Virus record (IMG/VR): IMGVR_UViG_3300020306_000014
Location: 1 to 31,827 of that record
Reading direction: 5' to 3' (one strand)
From: a virus
Lineage: Duplodnaviria > Caudoviricetes
DNA: 31,827 bases
A program made the position numbers and the translations under genes. This document shows, piece after piece, positions 20,516-23,276 of this stretch. The notes under the pieces were generated by a model that saw only the letters and a list, made by a program, of their open reading frames with translations, made no database searches and was not told the origin of the DNA. The number at the start of each line of letters is the position of its first letter. Within the stretch, counting starts at the first letter, position 1.

Positions 20516-20763
20516 GCTTAAGACGATGGTTTAAAGAAGAATGGGTAGACACCAAGACCGGCAAGCCTTGTGGCCGCCAAAAAGGGGAGAAACGCAAAGG
20601 CTATCCAGCTTGCCGTCCGTCGAAACGCGTTTCTTCCAAGACTCCTAAGACTACTGGTGAGATGTCGAAAGGCGAAAAAGCCAAGTTCAACAGATCAAAG
20701 ACCAGTAGCCGTAGGATCAACTATAATCACAAACGACGAAATAAATTAAAAATTAGAAAATGA
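20512..20763 (+). CDS. Basic small protein (DUF5872-like)
   Basis: [18 protein letters not shown]...[20 protein letters not shown] motif. Confidence 0.75.
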
Positions 20764-21800
20764 TCACAACTCAAACACAAACTCTAACTAGACAAGATAA
20801 CAACTGGCAAAGGTTCTGTGAGTGGGTCACATCTACCGATAACCGCCTCTATGTGGGGTGGTTCGGTACATTAATGATACCCGCACTCTTAACAGCAGCA
20901 ACATGCTTTATCGTAGCATTTATCGCTGCACCTCCCGTCGATATTGACGGCATACGTGAGCCAGTTGCAGGCTCTTTGCTATTTGGTAATAACATAATCT
21001 CAGGAGCAGTAGTACCTAGCTCTAATGCTATAGGTCTACACTTCTATCCTATATGGGAAGCAGGCACATTAGACGAGTGGCTATACAATGGTGGCCCTTA
21101 TCAGCTTATTGTCTTCCATTTTCTCATTGGTATCTCAGCATACATGGGTCGCCAGTGGGAGCTCAGCTACAGATTAGGCATGCGTCCTTGGATTGCAGTA
21201 GCTTACTCTGCACCTGTATCAGCAGCGTTCGCTGTATTCCTTGTGTACCCGTTCGGTCAAGGGAGTTTCAGTGATGGTATGCCTCTTGGTATTAGTGGTA
21301 CTTTCAATTTTATGTTCGTATTCCAAGCAGAGCACAATATACTTATGCACCCTTTCCATATGGTCGGTGTTGCTGGGGTATTCGGTGCAGCTCTTTTCTC
21401 TGCTATGCATGGAAGTCTCGTTACTAGTTCTCTCGTTCGCGAGACGACTGAACTCGAGTCTCAGAACTATGGGTACAAGTTCGGTCAGGATGGTGAAACC
21501 TATAATATTGTCGCTGCTCATGGCTATTTCGGCAGACTGATTTTCCAGTATGCATCCTTCAACAACAGCCGTGCTCTTCATTTCTTCCTTGCTGTGTTTC
21601 CTGTCGTTGCTATTTGGATCACCTCAATGGGTATATCAACAATGGCCTTTAATCTAAACGGTTTTAACTTTAACCAGTCAATCGTTGATGCTAATGGCAA
21701 GATTATACCTACATGGGCTGATATTGTCAACAGACAGAACCTTGGTATGGAAGTAATGCACGAGAGAAACGCACATAATTTTCCATTAGATTTAGCTTAA
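20760..21800 (+). CDS. psbA: Photosystem II D1 protein
   Basis: [51 protein letters not shown] is Prochlorococcus-like. Mn-cluster ligands retained. Confidence 0.99.
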
Positions 21801-21808
21801 TACCACGT

Positions 21809-21860
21809 CCGTTCATCCTTCGGGACGCATGAGATCCAAGCATGGAACGGGGCTTGGGTA
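21809..21860 (+). promoter_or_regulatory. Glutamine-II (Downstream-peptide) riboswitch
   Basis: CCGTTC/GAACGG P1, TCC-TTCG-GGA hairpin, CATG/CATG stem, pseudoknot ATCCAAG/CTTGGGT; immediately upstream of a YRG peptide ORF. Confidence 0.88.
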
Positions 21861-21873
21861 TATGGAGTTTACA

Positions 21874-21930
21874 ATGACTGTAACCTACGTATATCGTGGC
21901 ATTGAGTACACAAGAGTAGTCAAGAAATAG
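21874..21930 (+). CDS. 18-aa DUF4278-like downstream peptide MTVTYVYRGIEYTRVVKK
   Basis: SD GGAG at 21864; YRGxxY motif characteristic of peptides under Downstream-peptide riboswitches. Confidence 0.82.
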   Translation: MTVTYVYRGIEYTRVVKK

Positions 21931-21963
21931 TTGACATGGGAGGTGCAACTCCTCCCTACTCTA
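21913..21963 (+). ncRNA. tRNA-like mini-element (acceptor stem + T-arm, no D-arm)
   Basis: 7-bp AGAGTAG/CTACTCT stem contiguous with 5-bp GGAGG/CCTCC stem and 7-nt loop TGCAACT, plus TCAA/TTGA hairpin. Confidence 0.55.
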
Positions 21964-21965
21964 TT

Positions 21966-22021
21966 GGCAACAGCCCTCCAAGGAGGATACCTATTGCCGT
22001 CTAGACGGTGGGATAGACCAC
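21966..22021 (+). promoter_or_regulatory. Structured leader upstream of the major capsid gene
   Basis: GGCAA/TTGCC stem enclosing CCTC/GAGG; palindrome CCGTCTAGACGG; GTCTA/TAGAC with possible GTGG/CCAC pairing. Confidence 0.5.
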
Positions 22022-22079
22022 AAAAAAAGGCCAAAAAATTTCAGTACTGAGAACGTAAACACATAATACATTCTTAGAA

Positions 22080-23234
22080 ATGGGACAACAAAATTCAACA
22101 CTGACTACAGGTATTACCAATCTGGGTCAGGCTAACGGTTCGGGTGATAAGAGAGCCCTTTACCTTAAATTATTTTCCGGGGAAATGTTCAAAGGCTTCC
22201 AAAGGAACACGATAGCTCGTGACCTTGTGATGAGAAGAACACTTCAAAACGGAAAATCTCTACAGTTCATCTACACTGGACGCACAAAAGCTGAGTATCA
22301 TACACCGGGAAATAGCATCCTTGGTAACTCAGATTCTGCACCACCAGTAGCAGAAAAGACAATAACTGTTGATGATTTATTAATCAGTTCAGCTTTTGTC
22401 TATGAGCTAGATGAAACACTCTCACACTATGATTTGAGAGGTGAGATCTCTAGAAAGATCGGATACGCTCTTGCAGAGCAGTATGACAGAAAGATCTTCA
22501 GAGCTATCACAAAGGCTGCACGTACAGCACACCCTATCTCAAAGGCTAACTTTGTAGAACCCGGTGGAACACAGCTACGTGTAGGTACAAACGCACAGGC
22601 TTCTGATGCGTACAACCCCGGATTCCTTATCACAGCTTTCTATGACGCTGCTGCGATCTTAGACGAGAAAGGAGTTTCTGGTGAGGGTCGGGTTGCCGTA
22701 CTTAACCCAAGACAGTACTATGCTCTTATACAGAACATAGAAACTAACGGATTAATCAACCGTAACGAAAGAGGAGACGCATTGCAGTCTGGTAATGGCA
22801 TCATCGAGATCGCTGGTATCCAGATCTTCAAGTCAATGAACATCCCATTCTTCGGTAGTTTTGGTACAAAGAACGGTGGTTCTGCTTCATCAACAAACCC
22901 CGGCACAAACGGTGGTGACAACCAAGGTAGTTTCGTAGGCGAAACAATGGCTGACGAAAGAGCTGGCTCATCTGCAACTAAGACTGTTAACACATACGGT
23001 AACAGCACAGAGTTTGCACAGAGCTGTGGTTTGATCTTCCAGAAAGAAGCTGCCGCATGTGTAGAAGCAATCGGCCCACAAGTTCAGACAACATCTGGAG
23101 ACATCTCAGTGGTTTACCAAGGAGACGTTATCTTAGGTCGTCTAGCTATGGGAGCAGATTCTCTCAACCCAGCAAGTGCTGTTGAGTTAATCGCCGGTGC
23201 TGCTGTATCTAACACAACTAAGGCTTTCTCTTAA
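22080..23234 (+). CDS. gp10: Major capsid protein (gp10-like)
   Basis: ALYLKLFSGE, RTLQNGKSLQF, EKTITVDDLL, YDLRGEIS motifs. Confidence 0.97.
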   Translation: MGQQNSTLTTGITNLGQANGSGDKRALYLKLFSGEMFKGFQRNTIARDLVMRRTLQNGKSLQFIYTGRTKAEYHTPGNSILGNSDSAPPVAEKTITVDDLLISSAFVYELDETLSHYDLRGEISRKIGYALAEQYDRKIFRAITKAARTAHPISKANFVEPGGTQLRVGTNAQASDAYNPGFLITAFYDAAAILDEKGVSGEGRVAVLNPRQYYALIQNIETNGLINRNERGDALQSGNGIIEIAGIQIFKSMNIPFFGSFGTKNGGSASSTNPGTNGGDNQGSFVGETMADERAGSSATKTVNTYGNSTEFAQSCGLIFQKEAAACVEAIGPQVQTTSGDISVVYQGDVILGRLAMGADSLNPASAVELIAGAAVSNTTKAFS

Positions 23235-23250
23235 TTTACACTTTTTATAC

Positions 23251-23274
23251 GGGGGCTTCGGCTCCCCTTTTTTC
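23251..23274 (+). terminator. Tphi-like intrinsic terminator after the capsid gene
   Basis: GGGGGC-TTCG-GCTCCC hairpin followed by a T run. Confidence 0.9.
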
Positions 23275-23276
23275 TT

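Follow-up and report, generated by a model that had tools for sequence, protein, structure and literature searches.

Introduction

The t-elements of plant mitochondria are tRNA-like structures with a conserved T arm that lie directly 5' of mRNA ends and have been described at cox1, rps4, ccmFN1, nad6, and ccmC; cleavage by RNase Z after the discriminator has been proposed to form the mRNA 5' end, the role can also be taken by real tRNAs or acceptor-like stem-loops, and some elements overlap a reading frame at its end (Forner et al. 2007, PMC1920247). Here we describe elements of T7-like cyanophages that have these traits in common with them, with the mRNA 5' end and its formation by RNase Z being predicted in our case. 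The cyanophage elements differ in that they reside in lytic DNA phages of bacteria, are 40–52 nt long, have no anticodon arm, occur several times per genome, show covariation within the D/T elbow (A18/G55 type), and swap with an unrelated hairpin.

Most cyanobacterial tRNA genes do not encode the CCA end. Cyanobacteria possess both RNase P and RNase Z (PMC10989914), and cyanobacterial RNase P favors substrates that lack CCA (PMC4264200). RNase Z binds both T arm and acceptor and cuts after the discriminator, and cytidines at position 74 and onward inhibit it (PMC7479834). It also reads the tRNA elbow, in which D-loop residues 18 and 19 touch T-loop residues 55 and 56; elbows are read as well by the ribosome, T-boxes, and modifying enzymes (PMC4810234), and an elbow alone therefore does not name the enzyme.

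Host RNase P matures the C4 antisense RNA of phages P1/P7, phage M3 RNA, and T4 tRNA precursors (PMC11143913). Our locus would resemble these cases in that a phage exploits host tRNA-processing enzymes on a non-tRNA or precursor RNA; unlike those cases, in which a small RNA or tRNA is the product, our locus would likely yield the downstream mRNA as product, with a signal that is repeated at other places in the genome. The T7 transcript has RNase III sites, which are absent from the T7 annotation; together with the phi10 promoter these sites serve the same genomic purpose, in that early genes are separated and the capsid gene obtains an mRNA 5' end of its own. T7 lacks a T-arm element and is annotated with promoters before genes 9 and 10, whereas four cyanopodoviruses show only two promoter-like repeats. 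Elbow mimicry is also known from the tymovirus tRNA-like structure (RF00233; PMC4810234), the consensus of which has the same T-loop letters and an AG-containing D-like loop; in contrast to it, the cyanophage element has no pseudoknotted acceptor, anticodon arm, or CCA and is internal rather than 3'-terminal. Finally, the module upstream of our element is a member of the Glutamine-II riboswitches with an IF17-like peptide (RF01704; PMC2864571, PMC6212724). The portions of these two reports consulted mention no tRNA-like element after the peptide, and the cyanophage t-element also occurs without the riboswitch. The literature that we searched holds no description of these elements in cyanophages; the motifs may be present unnamed in supplements, for example in those of PMC2864571 or among the 10,006 candidate viral RNAs tabulated in PMC10690425.

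A tRNA-Like Element 5' of the Capsid Gene

We analyzed a stretch of 31,827 nucleotides, hereafter the window, that is a fragment of a T7-like cyanopodovirus; the region of interest matches P-SSP7, P-GSP1, S-TIP37, and relatives, and the early region is absent from the 31.8-kb window. The relevant features are as follows.

20760–21800, plus strand: psbA (D1), the upstream gene on the same strand (open reading frame; Pfam Photo_RC, E 4.6e-87)
21807–21858, plus strand: Glutamine-II (Downstream-peptide) riboswitch aptamer (Rfam RF01704, 47.5 bits versus a gathering score of 33)
21874–21930, plus strand: riboswitch-linked peptide of 18 codons with a YRG motif, IF17-like/DUF4278-type by context (PMC6212724)
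21913–21963, plus strand: candidate t-element of type A, whole tRNA top-half and elbow mimic (fold, homologs, covariation)
21913–21918, plus strand: 5' strand of the acceptor-like stem, pairing with 21957–21962, inside the peptide reading frame
21919–21935, plus strand: D-arm mimic with a 5-bp stem and a 7-nt loop (elbow covariation)
21938–21956, plus strand: T arm with a 6-bp stem and loop 21944–21950, G55 being 21945 and C56 being 21946
21963–21964, plus strand: discriminator-like A followed by the predicted RNase Z cut site (from fixed spacing and an N74 that is never C)
21964–22079, plus strand: conserved structured capsid leader (no Rfam family)
22080–23234, plus strand: T7-like major capsid protein gene (Pfam Gp10A-like, E 9.3e-72)
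23251–23275, plus strand: intrinsic-terminator-like hairpin and U run 3' of the capsid gene (consensus match only)

The upstream module has the two parts of a Glutamine-II riboswitch, an aptamer above the gathering score followed by the short reading frame 21874–21930, and a Pfam search with the peptide gave no match. Within the 3' end of psbA, on the minus strand at 21730–21702, we noted a perfect 12/12 sigma-70 consensus; it is not conserved, at least 10/12 being kept in only 2 of 80 distinct psbA segments.

The original prediction had described 21913–21963 as a tRNA top half with a 7-bp acceptor-like stem and a 5-bp T stem. The bases are all in place, with AGAGTAG (21913–21919) complementary to 21956–21962 and GGAGG (21939–21943) complementary to 21951–21955, the T-loop TGCAACT at 21944–21950, the discriminator A at 21963, no encoded CCA thereafter, and the peptide TAG (21928–21930) within the loop of the middle hairpin. 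The total of 12 bp likewise holds, but the division into 7 and 5 is disfavored: a register with a 6-bp acceptor, a 5-bp middle stem (21919–21923/21931–21935), and a 6-bp T stem is better by 4.5 kcal/mol, and a contiguous 6-bp T stem is the commonest form in the homologs (35/64). The single hairpin proposed to replace both the D and anticodon arms is present as well, but is specifically a mimic of the D arm, as described later. The 51 nt have a folding energy of –19.6 kcal/mol (z –3.28), 1 of 200 shuffled sequences being equally stable, and the pairing probabilities of the helices stay at 0.88–1.0 within a 400-nt context. A strict T-arm rule, derived from the homologs of this element, finds this site only over the whole window and none in 40 shuffles.

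ARAGORN found no tRNA in the window, and 21913–21963 lacks the cloverleaf with an anticodon arm that makes a tRNA gene. Rfam has no family at the gathering score for the 51 nt; the best subthreshold match is the tymovirus tRNA-like element RF00233 (14.7 bits versus a gathering score of 40, E 0.94), whose other defining traits, a pseudoknotted acceptor and a 3' CCA, are missing from the cyanophage element. In contrast, the structural traits of t-elements are present: a tRNA-type T-loop closed by G53-C61, approximately 12 bp of acceptor plus T stem, an unpaired discriminator, and no anticodon arm. The element is real and belongs to a class that extends across the phage family, and by its structure we take it to be a new phage variant of t-element processing signals, for which processing is predicted.

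Covariation of the Stems and the Elbow

The original prediction was to fail if homologs showed no compensatory changes; such changes are present in the T stem, the acceptor, and a tertiary contact of the elbow. Across 13 hand-picked diverse copies all 78 of 78 cells of the T stem are paired, four of the six pairs show double changes, and the covariation score of this hand-picked set was reached by 0 of 500 shuffles. For the acceptor, at least 5 contiguous bp form in 30 of 38 distinct 3' strands compared with 10.8 (maximum 20) when strands were swapped, and at least 4 bp form in all 38.

The strongest covariation signal is tertiary and comes from the elbow. Because a folding-based count (34/9 vs. 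9/44) misassigned loops, we instead used a positional rule that takes the last purine-G dinucleotide 5–12 nt before the T stem, and applied it to 106 distinct elements, 6 of which were uncallable. Copies with G55 have AG in 52 of 53 callable cases and GG in 1, whereas copies with U55 have GG in 46 of 47 and AG in 1, this lone AG case being a match inside a P-SSP7 gene. One uncallable G55-U56 copy has AA, and its close relative with G55-C56 has AG. The association is absent in shifted control windows and is the same in 50 clusters at 75% identity, 3 of which hold both states with both sides switched; copies at early genes also obey it. The 5–12 nt window was set after inspection of the data, and its p-value is therefore not a clean test. 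Given the pairing of AG with G55 and of GG with U55, the middle hairpin is a D-arm mimic, in which A21929 and G21930 of the peptide TAG would be the equivalents of tRNA positions 18 and 19.

Occupants of the Capsid Slot

Loci were fetched by capsid protein (80), leader pattern (120), a second motif (120), and the T-arm pattern (119). Frequencies were taken from loci L001–L208 (capsid, leader, and 8 GenBank loci) and the window, requiring at least 110 nt upstream, which gave 182 partly redundant loci. Directly 5' of the invariant leader, which starts with TTGG, 77 of these loci have a T-arm element (type A, a few of them full tRNAs), 102 have a different hairpin (type B), and 3 have neither by rule, two of these being type A with a loop of 8 nt; by rule the slot is filled in 179 of 182. 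From the end of the T-loop to the TGG of the leader the distance is 14–15 nt in all 64 distinct type-A loci, none of which has CCA at positions 74–76. N73 is A in 48 and the T-loop is of the G55 variant in 34 of these 64 copies, and N74 is U in 35 of 38 distinct elements and C in 0 of 38. The conserved T-loop letters are no evidence because the search pattern fixed them.

Full tRNAs occur in the same slot, namely a tRNA-Leu found by ARAGORN in two loci (L077 and L078) and Gly-like cloverleaves, read by eye, in four others (L094, L126, L137, and L191). In seven phage capsid regions that we read, a T arm lies 5' of the leader in Syn5, S-TIP28, S-CBP2, S-CBP42, and S-CBP3, is degenerate in P60, and is not seen in roseophage CRP-113. 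On a capsid tree of 99 rows, built by a quick method from 121 alignment columns, type A, type B, and tRNA occupants are interspersed, with 24 changes compared with 34 in shuffles and at least 6 changes forced by well-supported branches; the slot is therefore filled interchangeably. One identical capsid fragment occurs with both A and B.

Several neighboring features were observed in individual loci. In locus L006 the peptide, slot element, and initial part of the leader are all missing, and the aptamer leads straight into the middle of the leader. In L077 an abiF RNA (1261–1374; Rfam RF03085, 47.8 bits) lies just 5' of the full tRNA, with another structured-looking stretch upstream of it. A cyanopodovirus contig (L022) has a group I intron match (2410–2637, 105 bits) approximately 1 kb 3' of the capsid start codon. 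In the Rhizobium T7-like phage RHEph01 an annotated tRNA-Asn (L487, 438–508) lies 188 nt before the capsid gene, which hints that tRNA-directed processing before capsid genes extends beyond cyanophages.

The Type-B Hairpin and the Capsid Leader

Type B consists of a covarying 6–10 bp stem, whose pairs 1–6 are retained in 93 or more of 96 distinct copies, and a near-invariant 15-nt loop; it ends 12–13 nt before the TGG of the leader in 94 of 96. It is carried by loci L017, L042, L070, L085–L088, and about 100 more, and fills the capsid slot of P-SSP10 and S-CBP4. We also saw it 5' of psbA in L325 and 5' of another gene in L304. Rfam has no family for the type-A element, type B, or the leader (window, 20 loci, and 3 genomes searched). 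Searching the GTDB collection with the exact type-B pattern gave 28 matches, 27 with stems of 3 bp or less (chance) and 1 on a phage-type contig with a capsid gene; for this exact pattern a host origin was rejected, as it found no stemmed copy in cellular genomes. We also judged a phage promoter unlikely, given that a freely covarying stem separates the loop from the leader, which begins approximately 12–27 nt further on, and that promoter-like repeats sit elsewhere in the genomes.

The leader in the window is modular, with a 5' stem bearing an internal loop and a capping hairpin (21966–21998), a palindrome (21997–22008), a short hairpin (22008–22021), and a second, perfect palindrome in the A/U-rich part (22041–22050). 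This second palindrome, of at least 8 nt and changing sequence, is present in 210 of 215 distinct leaders compared with 66 in shuffles and is possibly a site of RNA dimerization or protein binding. Across L001–L208 the leader is a conserved structured RNA in which the capping hairpin is often UACG and the first palindrome is perfect and 10–12 nt long. Module order is permuted in L218, L257, L323, Syn5, and P60, and by eye the first module is also found in HTVC105P, P-SCSP1d, RHEph01, and CRP-113.

Distribution across Cyanopodovirus Genomes

The strict rule gave 18 matches in nine cyanopodovirus sequences: four each in P-SSP7 and S-SBP1, three in S-TIP37, two each in Syn5, P-SSP10, and P-GSP1, one in the window, and none in P60, whose degenerate T arm the rule misses, or S-CBP4. 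All 18 are in the sense orientation, 0 antisense, and 17 are intergenic by annotation, where acceptors may overlap gene ends. Shuffled genomes gave at most 0.10 matches per strand, and three non-cyanophage relatives (T7, HTVC105P, and CRP-113) gave 0. P-GSP1, S-SBP1, S-CBP4, and CRP-113 were scanned once the rule was fixed. Before or between early genes lie 11 of the 18 matches, each of the 11 with a predicted hairpin within 0–2 nt downstream, a count that has no shuffle control. A T-arm scan of viral contigs placed 105 of 119 copies 5' of a capsid-type leader and 14 elsewhere, several of these 14 likewise having a hairpin and then a small gene downstream.

Syn5, P60, P-SSP7, and S-TIP37 each have two copies of an exact 14-mer repeat that resembles a phage promoter, one within the RNA polymerase gene and one after terminase, and that of Syn5 is identical to the promoter given in PMC6834552. 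With at least 14 identical bases required, so that shorter repeats would escape, none lies 5' of the capsid gene in these four genomes. Exact repeats in the same two places as the Syn5 promoter mark candidate phage RNA polymerase promoters in L476 (6853 and 43820), L477 (5908 and 44474), and L489 (2774 and 42004).

Discussion

A Probable Processing Signal for the Capsid mRNA

The 51-nt tRNA mimic likely guides cleavage by the host RNase Z immediately 3' of A21963, a cut that would free a capsid mRNA led by a hairpin. The enzyme would bind the elbow as well as T arm and acceptor and cut after the discriminator; the fixed spacing, the missing CCA, and the missing C74 together point to 21963/21964. 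The product would run from the structured, protective 5' hairpin to the terminator-like site at 23251–23275, which would supply its 3' end. Such cuts probably serve to punctuate long polycistronic transcripts into separate, stable mRNAs in phages whose capsid gene shows no promoter-like repeat ahead of it. RNase P may make a second cut at 21912/21913, between peptide codons 13 and 14; we regard it as less certain because it would remove the stop codon of the upstream gene, and rate it below the RNase Z cut because C72 is rare (2/51). The structure, the elbow, the fixed distance of 12+1 nt to the leader, and the recurrence at early genes were established by comparison, and we infer the enzyme, the cut, and its purpose from them. 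Because compensatory changes were found, the comparison supports well the original proposal of a host tRNA-processing signal ahead of the capsid mRNA, in which RNase Z is the probable enzyme and 21963/21964 the probable cut.

Several observations speak against cutting. A contig from an RNA library (a close variant covering 21886–22028, depth 19) spans the element uncut, and may represent precursor or DNA. The acceptor is often only 4–5 bp with a terminal mismatch, and just 2 of 51 capsid-slot copies have C72. Archaeal RNase Z requires a mature 5' end (PMC7479834), and to produce one here RNase P would have to cut within a reading frame. Type B is the commoner occupant of the slot, and its equivalence rests on position because it has no recognizable T-loop; S-CBP4 is without a type-A copy, and L006 is without the slot. 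In one sample, assembled metatranscriptome contigs break off at 21915, at a distance of 3 nt from where RNase P is predicted to cut. We rejected this break as an RNA end: another contig diverges there, the next piece has an overlap of 30 nt, and the break is therefore an assembly branch.

Alternatives to the Proposed RNase Z Processing

The element could instead act uncut, by stabilizing the 3' end of the upstream mRNA, blocking exonucleases, or recruiting ribosomes or elbow-binding factors to the leader. We consider this unlikely, although weak acceptor ends that are not G1-C72, together with the stop-codon overlap, would make RNase P cleavage costly, the T-loop is identical to the tymovirus tRNA-like consensus, and many factors read the elbow (PMC4810234); the contig that spans the element also fits. 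An uncut signal leaves unexplained the fixed distance of 12+1 nt to a leader that begins with a hairpin, the absent C74 and CCA, and the full tRNAs that end at the same nucleotide.

The original prediction further proposed that the element is unfolded by ribosomes as they finish translating the riboswitch-controlled peptide, and that glutamine would in this way set the rate of capsid mRNA maturation. The overlap on which this relay depends is conserved: in 47 of 60 distinct type-A capsid loci, with very different peptides, the stop codon of the peptide falls within the element (27 in the elbow and 20 on the acceptor side), and in the window this stop itself provides the AG of the elbow. However, 11 of the 60 loci have no aptamer in the examined flank and 2 have the stop upstream of the element. 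Among 86 type-B loci, 12 follow the peptide by 0–12 nt, 20 have the peptide further upstream, and 54 have no aptamer in the examined flank, and type B overlaps the stop in none of the 32 loci in which a peptide was found; occupants are, moreover, interspersed on the capsid tree. Early copies overlap ordinary upstream stops in five of eight annotated cases, which were read by eye as the acceptor-start finder misplaces position +1 in several rows, and Rfam scans of the whole genomes of P-SSP7, Syn5, and P-SSP10 place no aptamer near them. The direction would also be odd: glutamine switches translation on for gifB (PMC6212724), and were it to do so here, more nitrogen would mean less processing. 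The conserved overlap thus stands, and the relay built on it looks secondary because a riboswitch is missing from the early copies of the three scanned genomes and because the majority of capsid loci have the hairpin that does not overlap; we hold the relay to be quite unlikely. Overlap with a stop is a general trait of type A, arising by compaction or by coupling to translation, and a glutamine-specific relay is therefore possible but unneeded. It is quite unlikely that tRNA punctuation in T7-like cyanophages is gated by translation in general, with ribosomes terminating in the elbow or acceptor deciding the RNase Z or RNase P cut and capsid control through the glutamine riboswitch in type-A phages.

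It is improbable that the element is excised by RNase P and RNase Z to yield a small RNA as a product in its own right, such as a decoy for host factors that bind or cut tRNAs. An elbow preserved down to tertiary covariation would suit such an RNA, and plant mitochondrial t-elements can accumulate with added C/A residues (PMC1920247), but the sequence is highly variable, an unrelated hairpin can replace the element, and all strict-rule matches but one are intergenic and upstream of genes. A function at the level of DNA, as a host sigma-70 promoter (TTGACA, 21931–21936) or a promoter of the phage, or as an attP remnant derived from a host tRNA gene, is very improbable even though the –35 hexamer is perfect and relatives carry integrases: we rejected the sigma-70 promoter because no –10 box lies at 16–18 nt, the promoter scan lists none there, and the hexamer is not kept in homologs; phage promoter-like repeats lie elsewhere; and the sense-only orientation, the several divergent copies per genome, and the tertiary covariation fit an RNA.

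Implications for T7-Like Cyanophages

We return to the tRNA mimic as a likely RNase Z signal. T7-like cyanophages are abundant ocean viruses. With two promoter-like repeats per genome in the four checked, the excess of capsid over neighboring proteins is left to be explained, and family-wide mimics of the tRNA elbow give a testable answer with predicted cut sites in P-SSP7, S-TIP37, and Syn5, one of which has published genetics. The T-loops of the elements in question begin at 630, 1027, and 20661 in P-SSP7, at 1015, 1468, and 20541 in S-TIP37, and at 2728 and 19865 in Syn5, and each predicted cut follows the 20th base of the count that starts there. The type-B hairpin and the capsid leader also emerge from this work as two further conserved RNAs. 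Gating by translation, if true, would link capsid mRNA maturation to the nitrogen status of the host in type-A phages. If the processing reading is true, the elements would offer a naturally occurring collection of minimal RNase Z/P substrates, and organelle-style tRNA punctuation would extend to the viruses of bacteria.
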